Origin: Verrucomicrobiales bacterium
GTDB taxonomy: Bacteria; Verrucomicrobiota; Verrucomicrobiia; Limisphaerales; UBA9464
Length of the DNA stretch: 64,000 nt
Assembly: GCA_027489875.1 (NCBI GenBank)
Contig: JAIXZE010000077.1
Coordinates: 33,000 to 96,999, forward strand
Direction of reading: 5' to 3'
Position 1 is the first letter of the stretch. The number at the start of each line of letters is the position of its first letter. Of this stretch, positions 23,627 to 47,953 are shown piece by piece. A program made the translations under genes and the position numbers. Under the pieces are notes generated by a model. The model ran no database searches. It had not been told where the DNA came from and was given only the letters and a program-made list of their open reading frames with translations.

Positions 23627-24474
23627 GCACGGAAGTTCAGGGCGGCTATCGGGGTAGGATTGCGCCATCGCCCACGGGATACCTGCACCTTGGGCACGGG
23701 CGGACCTTCTGGATCGCGTGGGAGAGGGCGCGGAAGGCCGGGGGTACGGTGGTTCTGCGGAACGACGATCTGGATCGGGATCGCGTGAGAACCGAGTTCA
23801 TCACGGGATTCATCGAGGACCTGAAGTGGTTGGGTGTGGAATGGGACGAAGGCCCGGACCGCGGGGGGCCGCATCGGCCGTATAGCCAATCCGAGCGGAT
23901 GTCCCACTACGCGGCGGCTTTGTCCCGCTTGCGGGATCTGGGGTGGGTTTATCCATGCACCTGTTCGCGGCGGGAGATCCTCGCGTCGCTTTCGGCGCCT
24001 CACGCGGGTGACGAGGAGCCCGTTTACGCCGGGCACTGTCGGGGTCGGCGAATGGAGGACCTGAAGTGGGGCACGCGGTTCAGTTGGAGGTTTCGCGTTC
24101 CCGATGGAGAGGCCATCGAGTTTGAGGACGGGTTCGCCGGCAGGGTGCGGTACGAAGCCGGGCGGGATTTTGGCGACTTCGTGGTGTGGCGGCACGATGG
24201 AGTTCCGGCGTACCAATTGGCGTGCGTGGTCGACGATGCGCTGATGCGGATCACCGAAGTGGTGCGTGGGGAGGACCTGCTATTGAGCACGGCGCGCCAG
24301 ATCCTCCTGTACCGGGCGCTCGGTTGGTCAGTACCGCGGTTCTGTCACTGTCCTTTGGTTCGAGACGCTCAGGGGCAACGATTGGCGAAGCGGCACGCCT
24401 CGCTGAGCCTGCGAGAGTTGCGGGCGGCGGGCAAACAGCCGGAAGAGGTCAGGGCCCTCTGGGGCGCATCTTGA
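23623..24474 (+). CDS. gluQ: Glutamyl-Q tRNA(Asp) synthetase
   Basis: RIAPSPTGYLHLGH, CTCSR, YQLACVVDD, RGEDL, LAKR; no anticodon domain; stop codon supplied by the inserted element. Confidence 0.9.
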   Translation: MSTEVQGGYRGRIAPSPTGYLHLGHGRTFWIAWERARKAGGTVVLRNDDLDRDRVRTEFITGFIEDLKWLGVEWDEGPDRGGPHRPYSQSERMSHYAAALSRLRDLGWVYPCTCSRREILASLSAPHAGDEEPVYAGHCRGRRMEDLKWGTRFSWRFRVPDGEAIEFEDGFAGRVRYEAGRDFGDFVVWRHDGVPAYQLACVVDDALMRITEVVRGEDLLLSTARQILLYRALGWSVPRFCHCPLVRDAQGQRLAKRHASLSLRELRAAGKQPEEVRALWGAS

Positions 24475-24596
24475 CACTGCCCCCGCATGCGCCGGGGAGC
24501 GACGTCCTCGTCGTCGTTCCGAAGCCATTCCCAATGGCGATGAGGACATCGCCGCCCCGAATCCTTTCCAAAAGGGCGCAGTGGCAAGATGCGCCC
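24462..24596. mobile_element. MITE-like element, copy A
   Basis: TIR gggcgcatcttgacactgc...gcagtggcaagatgcgccc; flanks ggccctctg/gaccctctg (8/9 match). Confidence 0.85.
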
Positions 24597-24641
24597 GACC
24601 CTCTGGGTGCAAGCACACTGAGCAACTCCGTGGCGATGGAA

Positions 24642-25769
24642 TCAGCGTCGGACGAACGGGCTGGCGAGAACCGTTTCTGTCGAGGTCGGAATGAATCCGA
24701 GACGCAAGGGTTGGTTGGGGAGCGGGAGCGGGATTGGGGAACCCTGATTGACCCTGAGGGCCCATCCGTTCTGGGCGCGTTCGAGGGTCAGTCGGTTCCA
24801 GCCTTCCTTCACGCCTGTGGCGATGGAGGGGAGGGGATGGATCGTGGAGTCCGGGGTCTGGAAGAGGATCGGCGGGCGGTTATCGGTGGGCTTTCCCGAG
24901 GGTCTCCAGTCGACAAAGAGTTCGGTCGTGGCGGCCGGTGCCGTGGACCAGAGGATGGCGTTGGTCGGTGCGCTGGCGCTGCATCGGAGGTTCCAGTCGG
25001 AAGGTTTCCAGACCTCCATCGCGGCCGGTGAACCCGTCCAGCCACGGAGGCTGCGTCCGTCGTAAAGACTTTCCCAGGGAACGGCGGCTGGGGCTGACAT
25101 TTCAGCGGCGGGATTGCTGGAGGGGAGTTCCTGGATCCGGAGGTTCCGCCAATCGACGATGCCGCCTTCGGATTCGAGGGCGATGTAGCCCTTGCGCCAG
25201 GAGCAGTCCGTGCCGCCGGAGACTTCAGCACCATTCACGGAAAGGCGGATGACGCCGTTGGTCGCCACGATGCGGTAGTGATTCCATTCGTTGGTGCCCT
25301 TGCTGCGGAACTCCTTTGGAAAGGAGCGGTCGCCCTTGCTCGGGCTGAAGGGTTTCATCGTCGAGCCGTGGATCGGGAAGATGTCTCCGTGCGTGGTGAA
25401 CCAGTCGGATTTCCCGTAGCCGTGGTCGAGGACCTGGACCTCGATGGCACGCAGGAAGGGTTGACCGGGAGCCGGGAGCGATCCTGACCAGATGAAGACC
25501 CCGGCGTTGCCGCCTGACTTCATGTGTCGCCACTCCAGTTCGAGGATGAAGTTTTCGAACTGGCGTTCGGTGCGGAGTGCGCCGGTCGGGATGCCATCGC
25601 AATGGATCATCCCATCGCGCACCGTGAACGTTTCGGGTGCGCAGTTCACGTTGACCCAGCCCGAGAGGTCACGCCCGTTGAAGAGGGGGGTGAAGGTGTT
25701 CGAAGGTTCTGCTGCGATTGAAGTCGCGGTGGTGAGGCAAAGGGTCAGCAGGAGGAGTGGGGGATTCAT
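24642..25769 (-). CDS. DUF1080 (3-keto-disaccharide hydrolase-like) secreted protein
   Basis: LFNGRDLSGW, NFILELEW, GNAGVF, EVQVLD, EWNHYRI, GYIALESEG; degenerate second domain. Confidence 0.85.
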   Translation of the reverse strand: MNPPLLLLTLCLTTATSIAAEPSNTFTPLFNGRDLSGWVNVNCAPETFTVRDGMIHCDGIPTGALRTERQFENFILELEWRHMKSGGNAGVFIWSGSLPAPGQPFLRAIEVQVLDHGYGKSDWFTTHGDIFPIHGSTMKPFSPSKGDRSFPKEFRSKGTNEWNHYRIVATNGVIRLSVNGAEVSGGTDCSWRKGYIALESEGGIVDWRNLRIQELPSSNPAAEMSAPAAVPWESLYDGRSLRGWTGSPAAMEVWKPSDWNLRCSASAPTNAILWSTAPAATTELFVDWRPSGKPTDNRPPILFQTPDSTIHPLPSIATGVKEGWNRLTLERAQNGWALRVNQGSPIPLPLPNQPLRLGFIPTSTETVLASPFVRR

Positions 25770-25787
25770 GGCGGGCGGGTTCTGGAG

Positions 25788-26507
25788 TCAGGGCTGGGAA
25801 GGAGTGGGTTCCGGCCGAATGGGACGCGGCCGATCGCCAAAGAGGGCAGTGCCGACCCGGACAAGGGTGGCCCCCTCCTCGATGGCGACTTCGAGGTCAC
25901 CGCTCATTCCCATGCTGAGGATGGGCAGCGGGTGTTGGAGGCGTTGTTCGCATTGATCCCGGAGTTCGCGCAGTCGACGGAAGATAGGCCGGGCTGTCTC
26001 AGGATCGGGGGCGTAGGGAGCAATGGTCATGAGACCCTTCAGGGGGAGCCGATCCAGCGCTGACAGGGCTGGGAGGGCGCCGAGAAGCGCGTCCGGGGTC
26101 CAGCCGAACTTGCTGGATTCACCGGCGACGTTGACCTCGGCAAGGATCGCGGGTTGGCGGGACTGCTTCTGAGCCTGCTTCTGGAGTTCGCGGGCGAGCT
26201 CGAGCGAGTCGACGCCCTGAACCGTCTCAAAGAGTGCGACGGCATCGCGTGCCTTGTTGGATTGCAGGTGTCCGATGAAATGCCATCGGGCTGTGGGCGG
26301 GCTCAAAGGGATCTTGGCCCGGGCCTCCTGGATGCGGTTCTCCCCGAAGAGGGTCAGCCCGAGTTGGACGGCTTCGGAGACGGCCTCCGGGGGGTGATTC
26401 TTGGAGACGCCCATCAGTTCCACACTGGCGACGGATCGGCCCGAACGATCGCAGGCGGAGGCGATCCGCTGGCGGATGGAAATCAGGCGTTCTGCGAGGG
26501 CTGACAT
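25788..26507 (-). CDS. yggS: PLP homeostasis protein YggS
   Basis: GVSK, FGENRIQE, WHFIGHLQSNK, LSMGMSGD, VRVGTALFG. Confidence 0.93.
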   Translation of the reverse strand: MSALAERLISIRQRIASACDRSGRSVASVELMGVSKNHPPEAVSEAVQLGLTLFGENRIQEARAKIPLSPPTARWHFIGHLQSNKARDAVALFETVQGVDSLELARELQKQAQKQSRQPAILAEVNVAGESSKFGWTPDALLGALPALSALDRLPLKGLMTIAPYAPDPETARPIFRRLRELRDQCEQRLQHPLPILSMGMSGDLEVAIEEGATLVRVGTALFGDRPRPIRPEPTPSQP

Positions 26508-26514
26508 GATGGGC

Positions 26515-27798
26515 TCAGGGCTCCTCGCGGAGTCGGATGCGGCGGTACTCCATCTGCCCGGAATCGCCTTCCAGGCCGATGGGGCCGGTCGGGGGCACGG
26601 GAAGGGCGGCTTCGAGAACTTCTCCGTTGCACGTGCAGTGGGCGGTCCCATTGCGGACGACGACGACGACCTCGTTCCAATCCTGAGGCTTGTAGTTCTT
26701 GAGCGTCTTGTAGGGCCCGGCGAGGGGGTAATCCCGGCACTGCAACTGCGGTTGCCGGATGAAGATGCCGCTGTCGGCGTTGGGGGTGGCGCGGAACTCC
26801 AGCTTGAGGGTGAAGTTCTTGGGGAATTCCCGGGTCGTCCAGATCTGCTGGACGCGGCGGCCTTCGGTAGGGGTGGTCACGATCAGGCGCCCATGTTTGG
26901 CGTGATAACGGCCGTCCGTGCTCTGGGTGAGACCGTCGAAGCGGTTGGTCTTGAATCCCCATCCGGTCAGGTCGCGCCCATTGAACAGGCTCGTGAAGCC
27001 GGGTTCCGGGGTGAAGGCATCGTTCGTCAACTCCGTGAATCCGAGCGTGGCGAGCAGGGGGCGCAACGCTGCCGCCCACTTCGAGTATCCGATGGCGTTC
27101 GGGTGGAGGAGGTCCGGGAACTCGGCAGCCTTGGCGTCGCCATTGGCATCTGCGAACAGAGGCCAGGTTTCGGCGCGGGTGACCTGGGAGCGTCCCTTGG
27201 CGATTCCGGCGTAGAGTTGGTTGAGCTTCCGGATCTTGTCGGCGGGACGCCGCATGGAAGCGGAGCTCGGGAACACCTCGCAAAGGATGACGGGAAGGTG
27301 GGGGTCGTGTTGGCGAAGCAGGTTGAGGATCTGTTCGACATTCGAGGCGATGGTTTCCGGGGACGCGTTCTCCTCGAGGTCATTGGTGCCGATGAGCAGC
27401 ACCACCCCGGTGGGCTTGAGGGCGAGGACATCCTCCGCGAGACGGATCAGGACGCCGCGGGAGGTGTCCCCCGAGATCCCACGATTGGATACCTTGATGC
27501 CGGGAAACGCATCACTCATCCGATCGCCCCAGCCCTGGGTGATGGAGTCGCCCAGGAACACCACGGAGTGGCGGTCCCGGTCGGCATTTGCGGCCCAGTC
27601 GGTGCGGCGCTGGAGCCAAAGTTTCTGGAACCAATCCTGCCGTCGGATGGGCCCGGCCCCGGGAAGGCCGTCATCCGAAGCGGGGATAGCGAGCCTGGGA
27701 GTGTTCTGCGCCATGACGACGGGCGGCGTGAGCGTGGCGGCGAGCATCAGGCTGGCGACGATTCCAGCGCGGACTATGGACGAGAGTTCTCTCCTCAT
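26515..27798 (-). CDS. SGNH/GDSL esterase fused to DUF1080
   Basis: FLGDSIT, NRGISGD, GTND, DLLHP; then LFNGRDLTGW...GPIGLE. Confidence 0.87.
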   Translation of the reverse strand: MRRELSSIVRAGIVASLMLAATLTPPVVMAQNTPRLAIPASDDGLPGAGPIRRQDWFQKLWLQRRTDWAANADRDRHSVVFLGDSITQGWGDRMSDAFPGIKVSNRGISGDTSRGVLIRLAEDVLALKPTGVVLLIGTNDLEENASPETIASNVEQILNLLRQHDPHLPVILCEVFPSSASMRRPADKIRKLNQLYAGIAKGRSQVTRAETWPLFADANGDAKAAEFPDLLHPNAIGYSKWAAALRPLLATLGFTELTNDAFTPEPGFTSLFNGRDLTGWGFKTNRFDGLTQSTDGRYHAKHGRLIVTTPTEGRRVQQIWTTREFPKNFTLKLEFRATPNADSGIFIRQPQLQCRDYPLAGPYKTLKNYKPQDWNEVVVVVRNGTAHCTCNGEVLEAALPVPPTGPIGLEGDSGQMEYRRIRLREEP

Positions 27799-27867
27799 GG
27801 GTGGGGGCTCAGGATGGGCGCACGGGCGTGGTGCTTCCAAGGTTCAAGTGGGTGAATGTGGGGCTGG

Positions 27868-27996
27868 GGGCGCATCGTGGCACTGCCCCCTTTTGGAAAG
27901 GATTCGGGGTGGCGATGTCCTCATCGCCTTGGGAAGGGCTTTGGAACGGCGACGAGGACGACGCCACCCTTGCGGGGGCAGTTTCAAGATGCGCCC
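27868..27996. mobile_element. MITE-like element, copy B (opposite orientation)
   Basis: Same TIRs and internal hairpins; flanks tggggctgg/tgtggctgg (8/9 match). Confidence 0.85.
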
Positions 27997-28028
27997 TGTG
28001 GCTGGGGGAATGGGTCTGGCAGGGTACG

Positions 28029-28059
28029 AAAAAGGGGCGGCCGGTAATCCGGCCGCCCC
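28029..28059 (-). terminator. Rho-independent terminator of the 28089-31457 gene
   Basis: ggggcggccgg-atta-ccggccgcccc followed by T5 on the minus strand. Confidence 0.85.
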
Positions 28060-28088
28060 GTGCGATGGAAGGTTCAGACTGAGTGCGC

Positions 28089-31000
28089 TCAGTTGTAACG
28101 GACCACCAATTTGTCGCCGGCAGCCTGGACGCTCAGGATGGTGTGGCGGGGCGAGATGGTGATATATCCCTGCTCGCCGCTGGTGGGCATATCGACCGTG
28201 ATCGTCTTGTTGGCGTGATCAATCACGATATTGGTCATGGTGGCTCCGGTCATGCCTGCCGGAGGCACGCCGCTGACGGTAATGGGCGGCGGGGTGACAG
28301 CCCGGTAGGTCTTGAGCGCGGCCACATCATGGGCGCTGTTGAGGAGCACTTCGGAGCCGTCAGGCTTCACAACCGTCCACTCCATGGAGTAGTCGCCGCC
28401 GCCATTGCCGCTGACGAAGCGGAACGGGTAGATGGCGGGCTTGTCGACGAACACGGAGTAGGTCCAGCCGCCCGTCCAACCATCGTTGGGGATGAGGGCC
28501 TGTTGCTCCGGGTTGTCCTGGAGGCTGACGGTGATCGGGCCCTTGGCGAGTTCGGCGACAAGGTTCGTGCCATCACGGTAGTTGATGAACAAGCAGGGGA
28601 TGTCCACGCCCTCGGCGGTGCCACCCATGAAGATGGGCGGACGATCCGCGCGATCACCACTGGCATCATTGAAGATGATGACTGCCTTGGCACCGGCGGC
28701 CTTGGCTTGAACCGCCTTCAGGCCGAAGGCGACGCCACCGCGTTGGATAAGGACGGCGGCATCCTTGGCCTGGGCGGCGTTTGTGAGTGCGGTGTTGGCA
28801 AGGATGGGGCTGGCAGCCACCAGGTTCAAAACCAGCGGTTCAGCGGTGGGCAGGTCAACGCCGAATCCGGAACCGATGGACGTACGGGTGGCCGACATGC
28901 CGATGCGCTTGCCGGCCAGCGAAGGCGGCGAGGTGATGACGACGCAGCCGAATTGGAACGACTGCTCCTCCTGCTGCATGATGCGCGGAGAGTCGTCGGA
29001 GTGGACCGAGAGTTGGTACAGACCCGCCGTCGGCATCTCGATGTAAGTGATGGCTTCGGCCGCGTAGTGGTCCATGCGGCCAGACTTGCCGGGGAGACCG
29101 GGGAGCTTGATGTCGTCCCGGATCGAACCCAGGGTCCCGGGTCCGAAGTTGATGGTATCCACCTGCCACCATTCGCCGTCGCGCGGGTAGGTGGTGTCCG
29201 TGAAGTCGACGTCATTGGCACCGGGCAGGATGCCGGCGAGCATGGCTTCGGACTTGGTCACGGAACCGTTTTCGCCCGAGACGAATCCGATCGGGAGCTG
29301 CCACGTGCGGACCTTGAAGCCGCGGGTGTTGGCGACCTGGGAACCGAGAGGATAGGACCGGGCAACGTCCGGGATGAAGGCTTCGACGATCTCGAAATCC
29401 CATTCGTTGGTGACGGTTGTTCCGGCGCTGTCGGTGTACACCAAGGTCGCTGTATGGGAAGTGGCAGGCAGGAAGTCCGCCGTGCGGGTGAAGGTGACGG
29501 TGGTGACCTTGCCGTTCTTGACCGCAGTGGAAGTGCCAGCACCGTCCACCTTCAGGCTGACGTTGCTCGGAGAAACCGTGGTGCCGTCATCGACGATGTT
29601 GGCGGTCACGTTCGCGTTGGGGAGGACTTCCGTGATGGTGAACTCCTGCATGCCGGCGATGTTCACGCCGGGCGTGACGTTGCGGACATAGGCCGGGAAC
29701 GAGGCCGGGGGTTGGTAGGCCTGGATGCCACCCGGGGTATTGATCAGCTTGAGGTTGGATCCATCGGGATCGGCCGAGAAGAACTCGAGGTCGCCCTGGC
29801 GGATGCCGATATTGTGGATCAGGCGGACGGGGTAATAGCCGGGGGTCGGGACGAAGAACGAGAACAGGTAGTTCTCGGTGATGTTGCCGTCGAAGTCGCC
29901 GAGCACGGTGGCGAACAGATCCTTCGGTCCGCGTTTGCCATCACCGATGGCGACGGAGAAGGAGTCGATGCCGAAGATGCCGAGGGTATAGCTGCCGGCA
30001 GTGGGGAAGTGCAGGACGGTCATCACCTCGGTGGCGAGATTGTCCGCGGTCCAGTCCAGGCCGCCGTTGCCGGGAGTGCCCGGGAAGGGAAGGTCGGCAA
30101 ATCCGTTGGTTGTGGTGAAATTGCCCTTCTCGACGACCTCGTAGAAGTTGTTGAGGTTGATGACGCTGTTCGCGGGTGTGTTGAACAGGAAGTAGCCGTT
30201 GGCATCGGCGTTTGAGAGATCTGCGAGGTTGTTGCCTTCGAGGCCTTCCAATTGATTGCGGATGTTGTCCAGCGACGCGGCGTTGTCGAAGTCGGCGCCG
30301 TCGGCTTGGTGGACGAACAGTCGGAAGCCCTTCTTGGTCTTGTCGACCTGGGACTCAGGGATGGCCGCGGCGGCCTCGATGGCGGCTGTGCTGACCCTGA
30401 AGGACCACGTGTTGGTTCGCGGCAAGGGCGGCGTGCCGGCGTCGGTGAACTTCAGCGTGACATTGTACAGTGCGCCGACTTCCAGGGCCGCGGACGGTGT
30501 GAATGTTGCCGTTGTCTGCGTGCCAACCTTGTTGAGGGTGAGGGCTCCGGCAACAGCCGCGCCGCCTTCATTGGCAGCCACAGTGAGCGACACGGACGAA
30601 CCGTTGAGTGCGATTGAATCGTCCCTGAGATTGGCCACGATGGCGGCCGTCGGAGAGACACCGACGGCTCCGGATTCAGGAAAGATGTTGGCCACGTATG
30701 GGCGGAGAGGCCCGGAGTAGTACGACTTGACGGTGTTGGTCGGATTTCCGACGGCAATGCGATTGCCTGCGCCGTCGAAGAGGAACCATTCCCAGCCGCT
30801 GGCGCCGAGGCGATTGGCCCAGAGGCAGCGGAACGGGTAGATGCCGGGTTGGGTGACATTGACCAGGATGACGCGTGTCTCGGTCATCGCGCGTTCTCCG
30901 GAAAACTGGCGGAGCACGGTGGCGAAACGGTCTCGCGGGTTGACACCGAAGGTCAGCTTGAAGGCGTCATCGGAGGAGACGCCGAACTCGTAGGTTCCTG

Positions 31001-31457
31001 CGGTTGGGAATTCGAGGAAGGCGATGGCTTCGGCGGCGGCCTGCTCGGAAGAGCCCGTTGTGCCTGGAAGGCCGGGGATCAGCGTATCGGGGAAGTCAGG
31101 TCCGACGAGAACACCGTTGTCGGCATCGATGCCGGCGTCGTGGCGGAAGTTCAGGCCTTGGTTGACGACAAAGAACCCGAGGCTGGTGTCGAAGGTGTAG
31201 TTGGGGTCGGAGAGGTTGGCGATGTTCGCACCGAGATCCCCGTTGAGAAGACGTTCGGACGTGGCGACTGACCCTGCGTGGTCGATTCCCTCCACTTGCG
31301 CCGTCCGAACCAGGAATCCTGGTTTGTTGGTATCCACGCCTGTGGTGAGGCGTAGCGATGCGGGTAGCGTGGTCTGGGCGAAGCTCCCGGTGACCAAACC
31401 GGGGACCAGACCACTGAAGAGGGCGGCAATGCCACCCAGTTTGATCAGTGGTTTCAT
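28089..31457 (-). CDS. Large secreted protein with three PA14-like modules, Ig-like linkers and a PA (protease-associated) domain
   Basis: Signal peptide; repeated FPTAG.Y..G..SDD.F / G.YP.R modules; LIQRGGVAFGLKAVQAKAAGAKAVIIFN. Confidence 0.7.
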   Translation of the reverse strand: MKPLIKLGGIAALFSGLVPGLVTGSFAQTTLPASLRLTTGVDTNKPGFLVRTAQVEGIDHAGSVATSERLLNGDLGANIANLSDPNYTFDTSLGFFVVNQGLNFRHDAGIDADNGVLVGPDFPDTLIPGLPGTTGSSEQAAAEAIAFLEFPTAGTYEFGVSSDDAFKLTFGVNPRDRFATVLRQFSGERAMTETRVILVNVTQPGIYPFRCLWANRLGASGWEWFLFDGAGNRIAVGNPTNTVKSYYSGPLRPYVANIFPESGAVGVSPTAAIVANLRDDSIALNGSSVSLTVAANEGGAAVAGALTLNKVGTQTTATFTPSAALEVGALYNVTLKFTDAGTPPLPRTNTWSFRVSTAAIEAAAAIPESQVDKTKKGFRLFVHQADGADFDNAASLDNIRNQLEGLEGNNLADLSNADANGYFLFNTPANSVINLNNFYEVVEKGNFTTTNGFADLPFPGTPGNGGLDWTADNLATEVMTVLHFPTAGSYTLGIFGIDSFSVAIGDGKRGPKDLFATVLGDFDGNITENYLFSFFVPTPGYYPVRLIHNIGIRQGDLEFFSADPDGSNLKLINTPGGIQAYQPPASFPAYVRNVTPGVNIAGMQEFTITEVLPNANVTANIVDDGTTVSPSNVSLKVDGAGTSTAVKNGKVTTVTFTRTADFLPATSHTATLVYTDSAGTTVTNEWDFEIVEAFIPDVARSYPLGSQVANTRGFKVRTWQLPIGFVSGENGSVTKSEAMLAGILPGANDVDFTDTTYPRDGEWWQVDTINFGPGTLGSIRDDIKLPGLPGKSGRMDHYAAEAITYIEMPTAGLYQLSVHSDDSPRIMQQEEQSFQFGCVVITSPPSLAGKRIGMSATRTSIGSGFGVDLPTAEPLVLNLVAASPILANTALTNAAQAKDAAVLIQRGGVAFGLKAVQAKAAGAKAVIIFNDASGDRADRPPIFMGGTAEGVDIPCLFINYRDGTNLVAELAKGPITVSLQDNPEQQALIPNDGWTGGWTYSVFVDKPAIYPFRFVSGNGGGDYSMEWTVVKPDGSEVLLNSAHDVAALKTYRAVTPPPITVSGVPPAGMTGATMTNIVIDHANKTITVDMPTSGEQGYITISPRHTILSVQAAGDKLVVRYN

Positions 31458-31619
31458 GCTCTGAGGATTTTGGAAGCGTGTGGTGCCTCCGTCGTCCCAA
31501 GGGCGTAGGGCAGATGAGGACGCGGGTAAAGGCATTTCCTCGTCGCGGATGCAAGGATGTGGCGACGATTGCGGCGAGTTGTGGGCATTCTGCCAAAGAA
31601 TGGCCATTTGCGCCCCGCT

Positions 31620-38815: not shown

Positions 38816-38885
38816 CGCGATGAGTCCGGTGAAGAAGCCAGTCAACGCGAAGACATGCAAGTCGCAGATAGGGGAAGTTCCGAGG

Positions 38886-39020
38886 GGGTGCATCTCGACA
38901 CTGCCCCCGCATGGAACGGGGTGGCGACGTCCTCGTCGCCTTTCCAAAGCCATGCCCAAGGCGATGAGGACATCGCCGCCCCGAATCCTTTCCAAAAGGG
39001 GGCAGTGTCAAGATGCGCCC
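38886..39020. mobile_element. MITE-like element, copy C
   Basis: TIRs gggtgcatctcgacactgccccc...gggggcagtgtcaagatgcgccc; perfect flanking ttccgagg duplication. Confidence 0.88.
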
Positions 39021-39052
39021 TTCCGAGGGCGGGTTGCCGGGCGGGGGAGACG

Positions 39053-39080: not shown

Positions 39081-39113
39081 CTGGATGACAGGGGGTGCCT
39101 GTGAAGGAACCTC

Positions 39114-40355: not shown

Positions 40356-40415
40356 ACGGCCTCGAACGGCGTGGCGGACGGATGCTGGGAGAAGCCTCAC
40401 GGACATTTCACTTCC

Positions 40416-41504
40416 ATGGATTCCGAGGCTCTTGATGGCCCCGTTGCTGCGGCCGTCTGCGTACCCGCGGTTCCTTCGCCGACGGATCCGTCCCCGTTGT
40501 TCGAACTCTTCCGTGGGAGTTACGCCACGGAATTGCTGGTCGCAGCGACGGCGCATCTCGGTGTTTTCCGGATTCTGGAGAAGGGTCCGCTACCCGAAGA
40601 ATCGCTGAGGTCTGCCCTCGGGTTGGCACCGCGCGCCTTCCGCGTCCTGACCACCGCATTGAGGGCGATGGGAACGCTCTGTTGTCCCGTTGAGGGAGTG
40701 CTCGGTCTGACGCCGTTGGCTTCGACGCACTTGGTTTCCACGAGCTCCTACCACGTCGGCGACTACTTCAGTCTGGCCGCCGGAAGTCCGGGTGTTCTTG
40801 CGATGGTGGAGAGGTTGCGCTCCAACCGGCCGGCCGTGGGAGAGTCGGGGGGCGTCGCCTTCATCTATCGGGAGGGTTTGGTTTCCGCGATGGATGCCGA
40901 AGCGGGCGCGCGATTCTTCACTTTGGCGTTGTCTGGTCGTGCGCGGAATGTGGCTCCCGTACTGGCGGAACAGATGCCGCTTGCGGGTGCCCGGCGGTTG
41001 GTGGATGTGGGTGGGGGAACCGGGGTGTATTCGATCGCCCTCCTTCGGGCGAACCCTGACTTGAACGCGGTGGTCTGGGATCGCCCGGAAGTGCTGCGGG
41101 TTGCCGCTGAGTTTGCGGAGGCGAGTGGGGTGGCTGATCGCCTGGAGTTGCGGGGGGGTGACATGTTCACGGATCCGTTCCCCCCGGGAGCCGACGTGGT
41201 CCTGCTTTCAAACATCCTGCATGATTGGGACGAACCCGAATGCCTGCGTTTGCTCCAGCGTTGTGCGGAAGGACTGCCTCCGGGGGGACGCCTGCTGATT
41301 CACGACGTTTTTCTCGACGATGATCTGGGAGGTCCGTTGCCCATCGCGCTCTATTCGGCGGCGCTGTTCAGCGTGACCGAAGGGCGTGCCTACAGCATTG
41401 CCGAGTATCGGCGGATGCTCGAGGCCTCGGGATTTGGCGTGACGCAGTGGGTCTCCACACGAGTGCACTGCGGCGTCCTGGTGGCGGTGCGGCGGGAGGC
41501 GTAG
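40416..41504 (+). CDS. SAM-dependent O-methyltransferase (family 2, dimerisation domain)
   Basis: VDVGGGTG, GGDMF, SNILHDW, PGGRLLIHD. Confidence 0.88.
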   Translation: MDSEALDGPVAAAVCVPAVPSPTDPSPLFELFRGSYATELLVAATAHLGVFRILEKGPLPEESLRSALGLAPRAFRVLTTALRAMGTLCCPVEGVLGLTPLASTHLVSTSSYHVGDYFSLAAGSPGVLAMVERLRSNRPAVGESGGVAFIYREGLVSAMDAEAGARFFTLALSGRARNVAPVLAEQMPLAGARRLVDVGGGTGVYSIALLRANPDLNAVVWDRPEVLRVAAEFAEASGVADRLELRGGDMFTDPFPPGADVVLLSNILHDWDEPECLRLLQRCAEGLPPGGRLLIHDVFLDDDLGGPLPIALYSAALFSVTEGRAYSIAEYRRMLEASGFGVTQWVSTRVHCGVLVAVRREA

Positions 41505-41520
41505 ACGGGCGTTCGAGGGA

Positions 41521-42945
41521 TCAGCGCGGTTCCAGCAATCGGTGGAAGGTTTCGAGGATCTTGGGAATGGCGTTGGTCTGGAGTGGGCTGGTTCTCAGCC
41601 GCCATGTCTCGTACGAGCCCAGGGCGTGCTGGCCCGGCGGTGGAATGTAACCGAACCATCCATTCGCCAGCGAGATGTTGAAGAGGGGGGACGGTGCCGC
41701 GAATTTCTTCAGCGCAAGACCGCTCTCCGCGAAGATTTCCCCCGGCCACTGGGCCACGCGGAGTGGGCCGATATGGAACATCTGGATCGGGAGGGTGAGC
41801 GTGTCCGGGTATTGATCGAGCAGGAGTTGGTCCCTCGCGTGGATCTCCGACCAGGACCGGAGTTGATCCACGGTGCGGCCATTCAGGAGACGGCGTGCGA
41901 CGTCGACTTCGGCGGGCGTGGGTTTCCGGACGGCGATCTGAACTTCCGCGGTCAGGCTTCGCAGTGGGATCCGTTGCGAGTATGTGAGTCCTCCGAGGAT
42001 GCGTGAGACTTCAAGGCTGAGGTCCTCGGCAACCCGTCGGATCTGGGCATAGGGCGGGACCGAGGGACGAGGCTTTCGGAAGTCGATGTTATTGATGTCT
42101 CCCGAAGTCCCGTTCGAGAGGATCGCGACGAAGGGAGGATCCTGTCGGGAGGCACCGATACGGTCAGTGATCCGGGTGCAGAACTCGCCGAAGTAATCGG
42201 CGCTCAGATGGCCAGAACCGGTCCCGCCCACGTAATGGAGGGAGTAATTGGCCAGGAGTGCCAGCGGCCGGCCGTCCAGGTGACGGACGGCGAGCACAAA
42301 GACCTGTGGATCGGTGGGGCCGGCGAAGTCCCGGTCCTCGGGACTGGGGGATGACCAGTTCATCTTCACCGCATCGCCGGTCTGCCCGAGGAGGTTGGTG
42401 TAAATGAGGCCCGGCTTGAGTTGGATGCGCCGGTTGAAGACGTGTTGGGGCAGGCTGCCTTGACCCCAGGCAACCTCGGCGGGAGAAAGGTTGTTGAGGG
42501 CGCGGCGCACGGAGTCGGCCACGGGGCCGGGGATCCAGGCTCGGTAGGCGTCGTCCGCTTCGGCCAGGTGGACGCCCGTGAGGGATCCCGCCGAATGGGT
42601 GTGGGTGGCGGCGATGCAGACCTGATTGGAACCGAACCCAGTGGCGGCATGGATCTGTGCCTTCATCACGTCCATGAGCGGACGGTCGATCAGGCAGTTG
42701 TCGATCTGGACGAATGCCAGGCGCTCTGTACCGGAGGTCAGGACCAGGGCGCGCGCGTGGAGTTCGTCGTGGACGTGTGTCGATGCGGCCGGGGCGGTGC
42801 CTCCATTCATCACCGTACCGATCCGCGGTGTGATGACCGCGGTGGCGGCACCCGCCCGCAACGGTGCGGGGAGCGGGGATTCTGCCGCGGCGGACCGCAC
42901 GACCAGCGCGGCGAGGCCAATGGCGCGAAGGAGGCGGAGGCTCAT
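41521..42945 (-). CDS. Neutral/alkaline ceramidase-like secreted hydrolase
   Basis: HDELHARAL, ATHTHSA, NYSLHY, SADY, GDIN, PGEIF, GYIP. Confidence 0.8.
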   Translation of the reverse strand: MSLRLLRAIGLAALVVRSAAAESPLPAPLRAGAATAVITPRIGTVMNGGTAPAASTHVHDELHARALVLTSGTERLAFVQIDNCLIDRPLMDVMKAQIHAATGFGSNQVCIAATHTHSAGSLTGVHLAEADDAYRAWIPGPVADSVRRALNNLSPAEVAWGQGSLPQHVFNRRIQLKPGLIYTNLLGQTGDAVKMNWSSPSPEDRDFAGPTDPQVFVLAVRHLDGRPLALLANYSLHYVGGTGSGHLSADYFGEFCTRITDRIGASRQDPPFVAILSNGTSGDINNIDFRKPRPSVPPYAQIRRVAEDLSLEVSRILGGLTYSQRIPLRSLTAEVQIAVRKPTPAEVDVARRLLNGRTVDQLRSWSEIHARDQLLLDQYPDTLTLPIQMFHIGPLRVAQWPGEIFAESGLALKKFAAPSPLFNISLANGWFGYIPPPGQHALGSYETWRLRTSPLQTNAIPKILETFHRLLEPR

Positions 42946-42952
42946 GTGGCGT

Positions 42953-43891
42953 TCAATGCATCTCCACGGAACACGAACCGATGCCGCCGCGGAAGTAGTT
43001 GAACTGGACATTCGGATGATCGGCGAGCAGCGACATGGGGACCGCGGTGTCCACGAGTCCCTTGGAGATCATGTAGGCCGTCAGTCGCTGTCCGAAGGGG
43101 TTGTCGTGGTTTCCGGCGTGCCAGATGGAAACCTTGTCGGCGAGCCAGGTTTCGACGGGGCCCACGGTGATGGCCTTGGTTGGAACCATCGAGATGTTGC
43201 CGCCGCCCGAGGTTCGGGCGTTCTGTGCGATGGTCAGCGGATGGAGATCCACCACGCGGGTGGCGAGGCACCGGTACTCTTCCTTGGTGGGTGGGGTGGT
43301 GGCGTGTTTGCCCTTTCGCGGCAAGGGATCGTTGAAAGCCCAGTGTTTGACGTCGCCCTGTCCGCCCTGCATCACGGCGCAGCGGATGCCGGAGCCCCAT
43401 GTGGCGCGGTAGGGGGCGGTGTCGGCCTTCGGGAAATGCAGGTGGGAATCGGGAATCCGGAGCTTCCGGTCGAAGCGATGGAAGCACAGCTCGCGATCGG
43501 CCCGCTCAAAGCTGAGCGGATGGGTGACGGGGGTCTCGCGACCGGTCTCGGGATCGAACCATTCGTCCATTCCCCAGAAGTGGCCGGCGCGGACGTCGAG
43601 CTGGAGGGCGTTGACGATGCGTGCGACCAGCGGGAGTTGTTCGGTTGGACCGATGGGGCCGCAGATGCCAACGGGGTTGTCCGCGGTGGATTGCCGCCAC
43701 GCGTCGATGTATTCGAGGGCTTCGGCGAGATAGAAGTCCTCCAGGGTGTCGTAGAGGACGACCTGGAAGCCGGGCCGCGAAAGCCTCTGGAGGTCACGGA
43801 CTGTCAGGCGGGCGACAGCATCGATGATCTCGGGATCCAGCGTGGTGTAGTCCCACCAAGCCGGGGCAACAGCGGAAGAGCGACGGGACAT
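42953..43891 (-). CDS. Glucosamine-6-phosphate isomerase/deaminase-like protein (NagB fold)
   Basis: [38 protein letters not shown]. Confidence 0.78.
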
Positions 43892-43933
43892 GCGGATGAG
43901 CCTACGTCGGGAGTGGGGTAAAAGGAAGGGGAG

Positions 43934-43964
43934 GATCGGGCTGATCGGGCTGATCGGACGGATC
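43934..43964. repeat. 9-bp-period tandem repeat with four GATC sites
   Basis: GATC at 43934, 43943, 43952 and 43961. Confidence 0.8.
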
Positions 43965-44034
43965 CGTCTTGGGATGGAGAGGGAATGGAGGTGGGCGGGG
44001 TGGACATTGGCGGGGTGGCCGGTAGGCTCGGCGA

Positions 44035-46362
44035 ATGTCGCGCATTCAACGGTGGGTTGGGTTGTTGGGGATGCTGATCTGTGGGCTGGCTTTCGCAGCG
44101 GAGACCACGACGAAGGCGGCCCCGGATGACATGAAGGCGGTGGATCCCGGGCATTCGATGCACGGGCAGGCTTTCAACGAGGGACCGCGGCAACGGGCCC
44201 GGCGGATGTCGGGAATGCCGGAGATCCGCTTCGAAATCACCACGACGGATGAAGCAGCGCGGGCTTTCTTCCTGCAGGGCGTGGGACAGCTGCATGGCTT
44301 CTGGTACCTGGAGGCGGAGCGGTCCTTTCGAGAGGCGGCGTTCCACGACACCAACTGCGCCATGGCGTACTGGGGCATGGCGATGGCCAACATCAACAAC
44401 GCGAAGCGCGCCGGGGAGTTCATCCGCGAGGCGGACCTGCGGAAGACAAACGTGACCCATCGAGAGAAGCTTTGGATCGGGGCGTTGAGTGCTTTCTACA
44501 AGGATCCGAAGCAGGACGAGAAGGAGCGGCGGCGGGAGTACACCCGGGCGCTGGAGAACATCATCTTCGAGTTCCCCGAGGACGTGGAGGCCAAGGCGTT
44601 CCTCGCCTTCCACCTGTGGGACAGCAACTACAAGGGGTGGCCCATCGGGAGCGCGCAGGCCGTCGAATCCTTGCTGAAGGAAATCTTTGCCGCGCAGGCC
44701 ATGCATCCCGCGCATCACTACCGGATCCACCTCTGGGACGGAGAGAAGGACGAAAGCGCGATCCGAGCGGTCCCTTCCGCTTCAAAGTCAGGGCAGAGTT
44801 CACCGGGGGTGGCGCACCAGTGGCACATGGCCGGCCACACGTTCAACAAGCTGAAACGGTACCCGGACATGGCGTGGCAGCAGGAGGCATCGGTGCGTGT
44901 GGACAACACGCAGCTGATGGTGGATCGGGTGATGCCGGACCAGATCCACAACTACGCCCACAACAGCGAGTGGCTGGTGCAGACCTACAACTACAATGGA
45001 CAGGTGACGCGCGCCCTGGAGCTCTCGAAGAACATGATCGAGATGCCCCGGCATCCGAATTTCAACACCTTCGACAAGCGGACCAATGGACTTCCCTATG
45101 ATAAACGGGGAACGGCAGTGCAGGGCCGGCGGCGTCTCATGGAAACGTTGCTTCGATGGGAATTGTGGGAAGAAACCCTGAGGCTTGGGGAGACGTTGTA
45201 TCTGGAACCGACGGCCTTCGCGGAGGAGCAGGGACGGCGTGCGCGGTTGCTCGGTCTGGCACATCTCGGATTGGGAGAGATCGAAGCCGCGACGACCCAG
45301 ATGAAGGCGATCGAGGATTCAATGGGACGGCTTCGCGAGGAGCGTCAGGTCCACGTGGACACGGCGGAGGCGGCGGCGAAGGCGGAGAAGAAGGGGCGGG
45401 GCGATGTTGAAAAGGCGATGGCGGAAGCCGTGAAGCGGACGAGCGAGCCGCTGGAGAACCTGGAGAACTACCTCGCCGAGTTGAAGGTGGTCGCGGACCT
45501 GAAGGCCGGGGAAACCAACGGAATGGTGAAGCGGATCGAGGAATTGAAAACGGTTTCCAAGGAGCGCCTCGCGGGTTGGTGGCTGCAGTTGGGTGAAACG
45601 AACAAAGCCCTGACTGCGGCGCGGGAGGCGGTCGAGGGTGGGACGAACCAGTTGCATCCGCTGGCTGTGCAGACCGATGTCTTCTGGAAGCTTGGGCAGA
45701 CCAATGAAGCGTTGAAGACCTTTGGATTTCTCCGGGAGCGCAGTGCCTGGACGGACCTTCCGCTTCCGGTGTTCCGTCGGTTGGAACCGGTGGTGGCGGC
45801 GGCTGGCTTGAGCAATGACTGGCGCGTGGCCCCGGCCTATCCGGCCGATTCCGGAAACCGCCCGCCCCTGGAGAGCCTCGGGTCGTTCCGTTGGGATCCG
45901 CAACCGGCCCCGGGGTTGGAACTGCCGGGCATGGACGGCAAACCGGTGCGCTTGTCCGACTACCGTGGTCGGCCCGTCCTGGTGGTGTTCTACCTGGGGC
46001 ATCGCTGCGTCCATTGCATGGAGCAGTTGCAGGCACTGGCACCGCGGGCTGGGGACTTCAAGTCGGCGGGGATTGAGATCCTTGCCGTCAGCACGGATTC
46101 GGTGGACGGGCTTGGAAAGGCTCTCCAAAGCGCGGGTCCCACCGGACAGTTCCCGTTTCCCCTCGTTGCGGACCCAGAACGGTCGGCATTCAAGGCGTGG
46201 CATGCGCATGATGACTTCGAAGGCACGGCGCTTCATGGGTTGTTCCTCGTGGACGGGGACGGGTTGGTCCGTTGGCAGGATATCGGCTATGAGCCGTTCA
46301 CCGACTTCCATTTCCTGCTGCCTGAATCCAAGCGGTTGTTGGGTATCGGACGTCGGGGGTGA
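44035..46362 (+). CDS. Secreted TPR-like protein with C-terminal redoxin (AhpC/TSA) domain
   Basis: [26 protein letters not shown]; APGLEL...[10 protein letters not shown]. Confidence 0.8.
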
Positions 46363-46428
46363 GCGGGGGCGCAGGTGGGTGGACCCTGACGTTGCCACCG
46401 ACAGGTGGGGCGTGCATTGTCGCGGGCG

Positions 46429-47172
46429 ATGTCGGCGGACAAGCCTGAATTCAAGAACTTCAAGGAAGCATTCTGCGCGTACCACCGGTGCCCGGAGGCG
46501 GCGTACACGCGCAAGGCGTTGTTTCAGGGAATACCCTTTTACCTCCGCCCGTTCGCCTACCCCATCTACCTGTTCAACCGGTCCTTTTTCGCAATCGACG
46601 TTGGAATTCTGGACAGCCTTGCCGAAGCCCGAAGCGAGGAGGAGTTCACAGGTGTTCTGGATGAATTGTCCGCGACCAGTCGGGTGGAACGATCGATACG
46701 CCGGGGTGTGATCGGGATCCGCCTTTCCGGGACCTGCCTGATGTCGGAATGGGATCAGGTGGCCAAATACGTGCGCCCTCCGGAGTCCAAGGCCGGCGAG
46801 GTGGGCCGGGTGACGCCGAGGACAACCATCGAGCGGCCGGTGGCTTCGGAATCGATCTCGCGTGAGGCACCTTTGCCGGCGGTGGTTGCCCGGCGGCTTC
46901 ATCGTGCGGCGACGGATGTGACGACCGGGAAGTCGATGGACCAGGCCGCGATGGACGCGGGGTTGGCCGGTGAAGCCGAGTTCCGGAAGTTGTTGTCGCA
47001 GCACTGCGGCAATGACCCCGCGTTGCGATGGCTCAATAACCAACTGGAGCAGTCGGTGCGCATCCGTGAGTTGGAGAACGAGGTAGCCGCGTTGCGGGTG
47101 CAGTTGGGGGAACGGGAGCTTCTGATCCGCGAACTTCAGGGGGGTGGATCTCCACCACACGGTTCAGGTTGA
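46429..47172 (+). CDS. Hypothetical protein with C-terminal HTH-like segment and coiled coil
   Basis: Long ORF with typical codon usage; GKSMDQAAMDAGLAGEAEFRKLL. Confidence 0.6.
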   Translation: MSADKPEFKNFKEAFCAYHRCPEAAYTRKALFQGIPFYLRPFAYPIYLFNRSFFAIDVGILDSLAEARSEEEFTGVLDELSATSRVERSIRRGVIGIRLSGTCLMSEWDQVAKYVRPPESKAGEVGRVTPRTTIERPVASESISREAPLPAVVARRLHRAATDVTTGKSMDQAAMDAGLAGEAEFRKLLSQHCGNDPALRWLNNQLEQSVRIRELENEVAALRVQLGERELLIRELQGGGSPPHGSG

Positions 47173-47292
47173 ACGCTGCGGGCCTTTTTCGGTCCACGGA
47201 TTTCAGATTTCACAGAATCCTGCCCTGATGGCTCGCTTACGGGGGGGCTGTGGGTTGTGGGATTCCGGACAAACTGATTCATCGAGAGCACC

Positions 47293-47826
47293 ATGAAACG
47301 AATGAGTCTCGGAGTAGCTTGGATGGCCCTGTCCTTTTTTGCTTTCGTGGAGCTCCTGTTGGCGATGCCGGTTGCCTGGTGGTTGTACGCTTCACTCGTG
47401 CCGCTGTTTGCGTTCGGCCTTCACGAGAAAGCTCCGTTGCGGGAGCAGCGGGGCGGGATGAAGCATTTCGGTGTGGTGGTCGCGTTGATGGCTACCCTTC
47501 ATTTTGTGCCGTGGACGAGTCGGAAACCGTTCCTGCGCGACCTGGACAGGATTCAACCCGGAATGACCGAGACGGATGTCCGGCGGATCATGGGACGATA
47601 TATCGAGGGAACAGGTTGGCCGGCCATGCCCGAGGAGGGGACTGGGACCCTGACGGACCTTGGCTCCGGTGAGACCCATCGGGCGGGGACTTCGACAAAT
47701 GGTCAACTGGTACTTCGGGAATCGCTGGTCTTCCGACACACGAAGGAGAGTCCTTTTGAGTCGGACTGGGGGATCGTCAAGATGACTGGGGGTCGGGTCA
47801 CGGGTGTTTCCTTCAGTCCTGATTGA
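47293..47826 (+). CDS. Hypothetical membrane protein with SmpA/OmlA-like motif
   Basis: Three N-terminal TMs; RIQPGMTETDVRRIMG. Confidence 0.6.
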   Translation: MKRMSLGVAWMALSFFAFVELLLAMPVAWWLYASLVPLFAFGLHEKAPLREQRGGMKHFGVVVALMATLHFVPWTSRKPFLRDLDRIQPGMTETDVRRIMGRYIEGTGWPAMPEEGTGTLTDLGSGETHRAGTSTNGQLVLRESLVFRHTKESPFESDWGIVKMTGGRVTGVSFSPD

Positions 47827-47850
47827 TTGGGCCTGCCGCCACTGGAAGTC

Positions 47851-47953
47851 GGGGTGGCGACGTCCTCGTCGCCGTTCCAAAGCCATCCCCAAGGCGATGA
47901 GGACATCGCCGCCCCGAATCCTTTCCAAAAGGGGGCAGTGTCAGGATGCATCC
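47851..47953. mobile_element. MITE-like element, copy D (left TIR missing)
   Basis: Both internal hairpins present plus a degenerate right TIR gggggcagtgtcaggatgcatcc. Confidence 0.8.

Follow-up and report, generated by a model that had tools for sequence, protein, structure and literature searches.

The Repeat and Its Four Copies in the Window

The stretch of DNA considered here, 64,000 nucleotides long and called the window throughout, belongs to a 6.2-Mb assembly that is 89% complete (G000). It carries four copies of a short repeat in which two terminal inverted repeats (TIRs) of 23 bp enclose two small hairpins in inverted orientation (Table 1). An earlier sequence-only reading had reported these copies, and all four are confirmed at the positions it gave, which for the fourth were 47851-47953. 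That copy had been described as truncated. It is indeed incomplete, but it is not cleanly cut off: a decayed left part extends to about 47833 (profile positions 16-134). Given this left part and the decayed element found at the same site in the relative G007, copy 4 is regarded as old and eroded. No Rfam family reaches its gathering score anywhere in the window.

The upstream ORF of the tRNA-synthetase class I type (gluQ-like, 23560-24474) takes its TGA stop from the left TIR of copy 1. In G007, this copy is missing and a single 9-bp target remains, which provides the clean empty site that had been sought in relatives. Copy 2 is present in G005 and absent from G007, and its 6-bp deletion is missing in a relative. 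Copy 3 is absent from both genomes; contigs from four public DNA runs break off precisely at 38886 and 39020, and their flanks vary.

Table 1. Copies of the repeat in the window and parts of copy 3.
Feature	Position	Strand	Remarks
Copy 1	24462..24596	+	Complete 135-bp shell plus REP doublet
Copy 1 target duplication, left, 9 bp	24453..24461	+	Right duplication 24597-24605; 8/9 match
Copy 2	27868..27996	-	129 bp; 6-bp deletion adjoins hairpin A; duplication 27859-27867 / 27997-28005, 8/9 match
Copy 3	38886..39020	+	All 135 bp present; 8-bp duplication 38878-38885 / 39021-39028 without mismatch
Copy 3 left TIR, 23 bp	38886..38908	+	ISKra4-like IS end, by end comparison with intact IS
Copy 3 REP hairpin A	38918..38940	+	TCCT loop on a 7-bp stem; GGGG foot; stem pair 11/18 is C-G
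Copy 3 inter-REP spacer, 19 bp	38941..38959	+	Homologous to spacer of RAYT-flanking array in G009
Copy 3 REP hairpin B, inverted	38960..38982	-	T-A at stem pair 11/18
Copy 3 right TIR, 23 bp	38998..39020	-	Consensus 23-mer equals left end of intact IS L043, L052, L053, L112
Copy 4	47833..47953	+	Left end decayed; doublet intact from 47851 onwards; right TIR at 47931-47953; duplication not visible

Copy Number and Target Duplications in the Genome

The local density had led to the expectation of many genomic copies, and 865 fragments were counted across the assembly, 166 of them clean copies with two TIRs. Allowing up to 5 mismatches, the TIR is matched 615 times and its reversed pattern twice; allowing up to 4, the two hairpin patterns together are matched 1597 times and one reversed hairpin pattern once. 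With counts so far above the reversed patterns, the element is not a product of chance. Its length is 134-136 bp in 148 of the 166 copies. The target duplications hold well beyond the window: a 9-bp duplication with at most one mismatch flanks 81 copies (0.1 in the shuffled control), a perfect one flanks 48 (control 0.0), and 12 copies have an 8-bp duplication. No target-site consensus emerges among the 166 copies. In 39 of the 166 full copies no duplication can be traced; a test for recombination between copies as the source of these missing duplications gave 17 distant 9-mer pairs against 18 in the control, many of them at contig ends. One-TIR copies were rejected as one-ended insertions, as a perfect duplication is present in only 0 of 56 and 2 of 83. 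The element is thus short (135 bp), non-coding and bounded by TIRs, with target duplications of fixed length and empty sites, as is typical of MITEs derived from insertion sequences (IS).

By a crude gene model, 141 of 145 scorable copies are intergenic. A bias towards terminators was discarded, convergent positions (17 of 141) showing no excess over the background (259 of 1844), and so was the preservation of reading frames (135 + 9 = 144; 4 of 6 frames open), for which only four doubtful intragenic copies are available. In C254 of the assembly, an IS200-like gene is interrupted by a partial element. Among the 15 joints listed out of 66 in contigs from public DNA runs, none skips across a single element, and one end-to-start joint corresponds to a tandem copy that the assembly contains, not to a circle. 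In RNA runs, 5-7% of the words were recovered. The exact TIR 18-mer has no match in viral contigs.

The Ends and the Partner Insertion Sequence

In other Verrucomicrobiota, ISKra4-like IS of about 1375 bp have a left end that is identical to the 23-bp TIR. These IS, probably of the p-MULT4, ISMich2 type, have a frameshifted DDE transposase and leave 9-bp duplications too. Elements of this kind have been described with inverted repeats of 18-39 bp ending in C, duplications of 8-9 bp, a DDE enzyme and two ORFs linked by a -1 frameshift (Guerillot et al. 2014, PMC3942029). Of 101 transposase loci examined, some of which were counted twice, 22 belong to distinct and intact IS that measure 1360-1402 bp and have related TIRs. 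Four of them (L043, L052, L053, and L112) have the identical 23-mer and supply the transposase bounded by the same TIR that had been sought. Perfect 9-bp duplications occur at 13 distinct IS loci, five of these being copies within one genome. By far the best family match of the proteins is NF033572 (E 1e-50 to 1e-60), with transposase frames, mostly scored without ORF1, reaching 170-204 bits against a cut-off of 205. The residues D177/D263/E376 and the DFYH motif are invariant, and of 8 loci checked, 6 have a T4-5C4-6 run where ORF1 and ORF2 overlap, the other two lying on the strand outside the scan. Judged from these sequences, the partner probably belongs to ISKra4 (p-MULT4), given its DDE triad, its 18-39-bp inverted repeat ending in C and its 8-9-bp duplication; its two overlapping ORFs with a conserved -1 frameshift are as in the ISMich2 group, to which it may belong. 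The TIRs of the repeat are shared with an autonomous element, as in MITEs. Compared with such an IS, the 135-bp element is without transposase and keeps about 23-29 bp of each end.

The TIRs and the 8-9-bp duplications had been taken as the mark of a DDE enzyme of the IS256, IS1595 or ISL3 type. The DDE assignment holds, but not the families: the enzyme is ISKra4-like (p-MULT4), a relative of IS256. IS256 itself was rejected as partner, as PF00872 has 0 matches in G000. Also set aside were two DDE_Tnp_1 matches in that assembly (the unassigned L014 and the IS4/Tn5-like L015), which have no TIR match at up to 4 mismatches, and an ISKra4 match in G009 (L223), whose ends differ. The IS and the TIR-bounded shell are found together in G258 and G038. 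Since the cognate transposase was found neither in G000, at its 89% completeness, nor in G005, G007, G008, G014 or the closed genome G009, mobilisation is deduced from the ends and the duplications.

The Interior and the RAYT Gene

The 65-bp interior of the element, spacer included, matches REP arrays around an intact RAYT gene in G009, a genome of the same genus. The product of this gene (P0003) contains HVH and YTEWNP, scores 77.1 against a cut-off of 80, and has doublet arrays on both sides. The array unit is identical at 54-56 of 65 positions to the shell cargo of G009 and at 49 of 65 to window copy 3. Free REP units near a RAYT, which the sequence-only reading had suggested looking for, exist in this relative and were not found in G000. 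P0003 is the only RAYT found with the REP of the element; the search for an intact one in G000, G005, G007 and G014 gave none. Across the family, RAYT homologues have their own GGAG/GTAG-tagged REPs. Three Y1_Tnp matches in G000 were rejected as REPtrons of the hairpin, and P0004, which is hairpin-flanked there, was rejected as an active RAYT, being without the second His and the catalytic Tyr; hairpin flanks are mostly missing from its orthologues.

REPs are marked by a GT[AG]G tetranucleotide 0-2 nt 5' of the stem. Among 1595 hairpins of the present kind, the foot is GGGGT in 714, GGGGC in 467 and GGGGA in 219; GTGG occurs only overlapping the stem, in the commonest variant, and GGAG in the G009 arrays. 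Stem pair 11/18 is C-G in 843 and T-A in 685, and an A-T variant of this compensated pair occurs in G009. Hairpins with a compensated stem, inverted doublets, tandem arrays and high copy number are all features of REPs and REPINs, and in G009 P0003, with its HUH and Y---NP motifs, is the flanking RAYT. A REPIN doublet, however, moves alone without DDE ends, and here the moving unit includes the TIRs and the 9-bp duplication. The assembly also contains at least one further abundant REP family.

Hairpins confined to TIRs would have spoken against a separate REP system, but TIR-less doublets and arrays are common, with 156 in TIR-less tandem arrays. Diversity among free doublets is roughly double that among shelled ones (8.6 versus 4.3 of 19 in the spacer, 4.4 versus 2.2 of 46 in the hairpins). 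Remnants of a shell lie at 31 of 88 single TIR-less doublets, where about 9 are expected by chance, so that a shell origin cannot be shown for most free REPs.

Other Cargoes in the Same Shell

The shell encloses 54 cargo families, mostly REP-like palindromes, none of which has an interior derived from the IS ends; indeed, no cargo resembles the IS interior adjoining its ends. A length of 134-138 bp is shared by 9 of the 54, and in 10 of the 54 a GGAG/GTAG/GTGG tag begins at most 1 base from the inner edge of the TIR, one 576-bp pairing having been excluded before shell lengths and tag positions were counted. Strong self-complementarity characterises 44 of 55 families, and the other 11, such as two 102-bp families, fold no better than shuffles at a cut-off of z < -2.5. 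Matches to DNA near Y1/RAYT loci were obtained for 20 of 55 families, one match being a shell copy itself. Perfect 9-bp duplications occur at 53 of 100 shells of other genomes and metagenomes. Since related bacteria use this shell for dozens of further hairpin cargoes, IS enzymes are likely to help spread REP repeats. No capture intermediate, i.e., a REP inside an IS, was seen, and three internally deleted IS contain IS sequence only. A quasi-palindromic inner TIR edge was rejected as the cut end, because shells with other inner hexamers also capture REPs. Shell lengths give a 10.5-bp periodicity with p 0.002, but 9, 11.5 and 12 bp score equally.

These cargoes bear on the view that the repeat is an ordinary MITE whose palindromic interior formed in place, with free hairpins as decay products and a secondary link to RAYT. 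It would account for the shell remnants that accompany roughly one in four to one in three of the single TIR-less doublets and for the single RAYT associated with the REP of the element. It is nevertheless most improbable: RAYT homologues have their own tagged REPs family-wide and many shell cargoes are such REPs, the diversity of free doublets exceeds that of shelled ones, 156 doublets stand in TIR-less arrays, and no cargo is like the IS interior beside its ends.

Alternatively, the DDE enzyme might have placed only empty shells, and RAYT would insert doublets into these TIR-TIR palindromes, one event per locus. The tags that adjoin the inner edge of the TIR in 10 of 54 families could mark junctions made by RAYT, and REP dimers within long palindromes have been described (PMC3733652, section 7). 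Empty or short shells are, however, almost absent: shells of 44-98 bp were represented by one copy in 1 of 401 genomes, which looks like a deletion product and is without duplication, whereas shells of 96-456 bp occur in 25 of 401 genomes (with a pattern and genome draw slightly unlike those of the former search), and no empty or short shell is among the architectures listed for G000. In addition, linkers, spacer and the 134-136-bp length (148 of 166) are common to the copies, as expected if the filled unit is copied, and the empty site of G007 is without both shell and cargo. As the mode of spread this is very unlikely; RAYT insertion into an empty palindrome may have been the first capture event of each family.

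Decay after Insertion and Folding

After insertion, the parts of the element decay unequally: TIRs, linkers, spacer and duplications have changed by about 5-7% and the hairpins by about 1.3%. Where the duplication is readable (108 copies), the number of substitutions per base amounts to 0.012 in the hairpins, 0.051 in the duplications and 0.067 in the TIRs (Fisher p 8e-19 for hairpins against duplications and 1e-46 against TIRs), and 0.056-0.071 in spacer and linkers, common second alleles being set aside. Decay of the TIRs correlates with that of the duplications (rho 0.45), whereas decay of the hairpins does not do so significantly (rho 0.16, p 0.10). At stem pair 11/18, hairpin A has 0 of 108 changes. 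As the hairpins decay far less than everything around them, the constraint appears to rest on the cargo rather than on the shell.

The anatomy could also be right while the choice of cargo and the conservation of hairpins are neutral, with shells taking up REP-rich intergenic DNA and gene conversion among some 1600 hairpins making them alike. In line with this, hairpins outnumber TIRs (1595 versus 615), another abundant REP family is at hand in the genome, and the contrast in decay is weaker in G009 (0.033-0.038 versus 0.049-0.065, in 16 shells picked as best BLAST hits). On the other side, because the 19-bp spacer in between shows neutral decay, conversion tracts would need to end at 23 bp; hairpin A and hairpin B each retain their own compensated pair (C-G and T-A, in the numbers given above), a point against repair with the long stem as template; and strong self-complementarity recurs in 44 of 55 cargo families. 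Neutrality is therefore a doubtful explanation, although one with some weight.

A bistable RNA structure had been proposed for the interior. This is not supported at equilibrium, where the long stem is favoured as RNA by 17-20 kcal/mol over the two small hairpins; as single-stranded DNA, it is ahead of them by 5.5-10.6 kcal/mol.

Proposed Origin and Mobility

The element is very probably a non-autonomous composite, in which ISKra4-like ends surround a RAYT-linked REP doublet and a DDE transposase spreads the whole in trans. The identity of the TIRs with IS ends, the length of the duplications, the orthologous presence and absence of copies, the homology with the RAYT array and the 54 cargo families all belong to this picture, and the REP doublet has demonstrably changed position within DDE ends. 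The earlier reading is thus partly supported; its central idea, a REPIN-like unit riding in a DDE-type MITE with many genomic copies, is borne out. Each of the refuting conditions that it named turned out in its favour: duplications recur at further copies, hairpins are also found outside TIRs, and a relative has an intact RAYT flanked by the doublet.

In plants, Pack-MULEs have TIRs of the Mutator superfamily, 9-bp duplications and foreign host DNA between the TIRs. A comparable capture may have taken place here, a pre-existing and more diverse REP doublet replacing the interior of the IS, so that its two 23-bp ends would come to enclose the doublet. Cargoes of the present type are non-coding palindromic repeats of 55-330 bp and not gene fragments, and the mechanism of capture may differ. 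The whole unit would then be copied in trans by the IS transposase, leaving 9-bp and sometimes 8-bp duplications, presumably in the copy-out/paste-in manner of other p-MULT elements, with a circle of about 143 bp as intermediate; circular intermediates have been reported for other families of that group (PMC3942029). A size constraint near 135 bp may apply, and bursts may have recurred whenever the IS passed through the lineage. Following insertion, the small hairpins would remain under purifying selection while the shell decays, and old shells could in this way leave free REP doublets. A broader proposal, which is possible rather than probable, is that the Mutator-family IS acts as a Pack-MULE-like machine for REP capture: bare ends would have taken up dozens of unrelated palindromes, with a preference for about 135 bp, and spread them, the host keeping the hairpins while the shell rots, and DDE transposases would be a main route of REP dispersal even where RAYT has been lost.

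Relation to Known Systems

RUP, NEMIS, ERIC and Nezha have been listed as bacterial MITEs derived from IS (PMC3733652). Like these and TIMEs, the element is short, TIR-bounded, non-coding, duplication-flanked, intergenic and probably mobilised in trans. Unlike IS-derived MITEs, its interior is the unit of a second mobile system instead of a deleted IS, and it varies by lineage (54 families). TIMEs are described as carrying cargo between two MITE copies (PMC4133298), whereas here the cargo lies inside one pair of ends. The term "MITE" is absent from the main text of the p-MULT survey (PMC3942029).

With REP/REPIN-RAYT systems, the element shares tagged hairpins, inverted doublets, tandem arrays, intergenic location and strong conservation, as well as doublets that flank a Y1 HUH gene with Y---NP (PMC3116915, PMC3337134, bioRxiv 2021.07.10.451892, PMC8266576, bioRxiv 279083). 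It differs from them in that DDE ends and 9-bp duplications accompany a doublet that was moved as cargo, and in a foot that is mostly GGGG or GGAG-Y, with GTGG overlapping the stem in the commonest variant. MITEs and REPINs have been treated as markedly different classes (bioRxiv 2021.07.10.451892).

A precedent is a passing remark of 2013, in which REP dimers of A. variabilis and H. neapolitanus were noted as "inserted within long palindromic sequences" (Di Nocera 2013, PMC3733652, section 7). The same anatomy, a REP dimer in a conserved flanking palindrome with empty palindromes not found, was described there as "target palindromes"; in that section duplications, transposase and mobility are unassigned, and the sequences differ from those of the present element. 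No paper assigning a transposase was found. A literature search returned no title or abstract on the element or on a REP doublet inside ISKra4 ends; ISfinder and the supplements of PMC3733652 and PMC3942029 lay outside its scope and may bear on novelty.

The spread of REPs has been stated to be unresolved (PMC8266576), and some REP families are without a dedicated transposase (PMC3733652). Both parent systems are now available as sequences and, with a REP doublet moved inside DDE ends, three questions become directly testable: whether REPs are dispersed by the DDE enzyme, whether so small a copy-out circle requires a hairpin interior or a length of about 135 bp, and why conservation of the hairpins is four times that of the ends by which they were moved. 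The comparison also suggests that the "target palindromes" of 2013 could be re-read as IS shells.

Copies of the Element and Their Insertion

By every feature tested, the whole element is a MITE, a 135-bp repeat in which two 23-bp TIRs (the shell) enclose an inverted doublet of REP hairpins with a 19-bp spacer (the cargo). It is real and combines known kinds in a new form, both of its parents are identified, and what it implies for the spread of REPs can be tested. The four copies noticed in the sequence-only reading are all confirmed at their places (see the table). The flanking duplications described for the first three are also present, those of copies 1 and 2 being 9 bp long and matching at 8/9 positions and that of copy 3 a perfect 8 bp. 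Copy 4, which had been called truncated, is indeed incomplete, but it is not a clean truncation; it is an old, eroded copy with a left remnant reaching to about 47833, and a decayed counterpart occupies the same site in the relative G007.

The source assembly G000 (6.2 Mb, 89% complete, 451 contigs, the window lying on contig C162) carries many copies, as local density had suggested. A profile search yields 865 non-overlapping matches (85.7 kb in total), and both ends are present in 231 of the 809 that lie away from contig ends. The TIR has 615 matches at up to five mismatches, against 2 for the reversed control, and the hairpins amount to 1595 physical units. Strict copies were defined by the order TIR-hairpin-hairpin-TIR (n = 166), and 148 of them measure 134–136 bp. 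The duplications hold across these further copies: a 9-bp duplication is perfect in 48/166 and has at most one mismatch in 81/166, as compared to 0.0 and 0.1 under shuffled pairing. An 8-bp duplication fits 12/166, no trace of duplication is found in 39/166, and the 166 strict copies share no target consensus.

At the place of copy 1, G007 shows a clean empty site in which the 9-mer stands once. Copy 2 is common to G000 and the relative G005 and absent from G007, and copy 3 is absent from both relatives, though the flanks there have diverged. Since copies 1–3 differ in presence among relatives, insertion occurred more than once along the lineage. Under a crude gene model of G000, 141/145 scorable copies are intergenic and no excess is seen in convergent-gene gaps.

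Origin of the Shell

An 18-bp TIR pattern is present in 36/61 genomes of the order. One TIR match led to a 1367-bp IS (locus L012); its transposase is decayed and, among families, fits ISKra4 best. This transposase was used to fetch 101 loci (some duplicates), among which are 22 distinct intact IS of 1360–1402 bp with related TIRs. A transposase bounded by the same TIR had been proposed as a target of search across the genome; 4 of these 22 IS have, at their left end, a 23-mer identical to that of the element. Perfect 9-bp duplications flank 13 distinct IS loci. The partner transposases keep D, D, and E, plus a DFYH motif, score 170–204 bits against their model NF033572 (cut-off 205), and are encoded by two ORFs split at a slippery T/C run. 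According to PMC3942029, the ISMich2 group within p-MULT4 is distinguished by a −1 frameshift, all p-MULTs make 8-9-bp duplications, and circular intermediates are known for IS256, ISLre2, and TnGBS.

The loci with the partner transposase come mostly from Verrucomicrobiota, and the same transposase group is also found in genomes of the window's order; IS and shell occur together in G258 and G038. The cognate transposase gene was not found in G000, G005, G007, G008, G014, or single-contig G009. As far as incomplete assemblies allow a judgement, the shell family now looks orphaned in the window's genus.

Origin of the Cargo

Of 41 relatives searched, just four (G005, G007, G009, and G014) carry the hairpin in abundance, and three more have single matches. 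Free REP units near a RAYT gene, which had been suggested as a check, are found in G009 as doublet arrays on both sides of P0003, an intact RAYT-type gene (HVH and YTEWNP; NF047646 at 77.1 bits, cut-off 80). Aligned across the two hairpins and their spacer, the array unit agrees with G009 shell cargo at 54–56/65 positions and with window copy 3 at 49/65. For other RAYT homologues in the family, among the matches listed, the REPs are particular to each homologue and are tagged with GGAG or GTAG.

Hairpins also occur outside TIRs. The G000 doublets comprise 216 with both TIRs, 153 with one, 88 single without TIR (31 of which keep shell remnants), and 156 in TIR-less arrays, and the diversity of free doublets is double that of the shelled. 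For this REP, G000 yielded no intact RAYT; the best match there, P0004, is without catalytic residues. P0004 is possibly a domesticated, noncatalytic, predicted REP-binding protein; in G000 its gene follows what we take, by a motif, to be the end of a ruvC-like gene. P0003-like matches at 34–42% occur about once per genome in 14/17 genomes of the genus, and the same motif loss is seen in those homologues aligned.

One Shell, Many Cargoes

In G004, G008, G010, and G011, of the same genus, the TIR is abundant but surrounds other palindromes. At least 128 metagenome loci matched, and the 80 analysed include 30 short two-TIR shells, none similar to the IS interior, and about 20 IS ends with transposase. 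The 100 distinct shells fetched, 53 with perfect 9-bp duplications, form 55 families (one a mispairing), which are not fully independent events because ancestry may be shared. The cargo folds at z < −2.5 in 44/55 families and matches DNA near Y1/RAYT loci in 20/55; mid-IS matches of 17–39 bases in 5/55 are treated as chance. Shell length is 134–138 bp in 9/54 families (p 0.004–0.01 against smooth nulls), whose doublets differ in length while linkers make up the difference, and the REP tag begins at most one base from the inner TIR edge in 10/54. One shell below 98 bp was found in 401 genomes; this is L470, of 69 bp and without duplication, resembling a filled shell minus the REP doublet centre. 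As exceptions, L447, L410, and L414 are 102-bp shells with the same TIRs and no obvious REP cargo (two families; 7 copies in G221).

The results establish the IS ends, the duplication length, presence and absence in relatives, and the homology and diversity of the cargo. An element with these ends and cargoes would be mobilised in trans as a circle some 143 bp long, with transposition bursts whenever the partner IS visits. One result, the size distribution, points to the hypothesis that a palindromic interior might ease the bending of so small a circle. Cargo capture would replace the IS interior and leave only the ends; the first capture may have been either a RAYT insertion with a later deletion, or gap-filling between transposase-bound ends. 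No capture intermediate was seen among the shells and IS examined.

Although the cargo is a REP doublet, what moved was a unit with DDE ends, and for this reason the whole element does not count as a REPIN. We presume that it works like a Pack-MULE. Among the titles and abstracts covered by the literature search, none assigns such shells to a transposase; a passage of PMC3733652 describes REP dimers within long palindromes in two species and interprets them as targets.

Constraint after Insertion

Duplication decay serves as a clock in 108 copies. Substitutions per base are 0.012 in hairpins, 0.051 per copy in duplications, 0.067 in TIRs, and 0.056–0.071 in spacer and linkers after exclusion of common second alleles. 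The decay of the TIRs is correlated with that of the duplications; for the hairpins no significant correlation is seen. What distinguishes the two types of hairpin is a compensated small-stem pair (C-G 843, T-A 685). This pair mispairs when the long stem forms, and the two types stay unhomogenised. Although the long stem greatly exceeds the small hairpins in stability, the low hairpin decay and the distinct pair indicate that the small hairpins are the conserved part. We read this as purifying selection on a putative protein-binding hairpin. Short-tract gene conversion remains a rival source of the conservation. The contrast in decay is weaker in 16 G009 shells, which were selected by similarity.

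Genomic Context

Positions of element copies and neighbouring features (window coordinates unless a contig or locus is named)
Feature	Position	Strand	Remark
Copy 1	24462-24596	+	
Copy 2	27868-27996	-	
Copy 3	38886-39020	+	
Copy 4	47833-47953	+	
gluQ-like tRNA-synthetase-class-I ORF	23560-24474		Stop codon comes from TIR of copy 1
Polynucleotide phosphorylase ORF	2263-5922		1219 aa; very long low-complexity C-terminal tail
Repeats making up that tail	about 4600-5500		9/27-bp units
Head-to-tail tandem copies	G000 C4:5991-6271, C15:11093, C58:24023, C306:2246		One target 9-mer between
IS200-like TnpA gene	L002:283-804 (G000:C254)		Partial element copy in place of its 5' end
P0004, RAYT-like	L222:1204-1998 (G000:C346)		Without second His and catalytic Tyr

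The empty allele of the gluQ-like ORF in G007 ends a few codons further on. A second abundant REP family, of GTAG type, is spread with its variants throughout G000 (about 170 exact 16-mers), and several shells sit inside its units, as judged from target duplications. In L243–L245, L247, and L248, RAYT-like domains with flanking REPs lie in frame inside open frames of 680–1500 aa, which, judged by their flanks, are apparently helicase, methyltransferase, or transferase genes.
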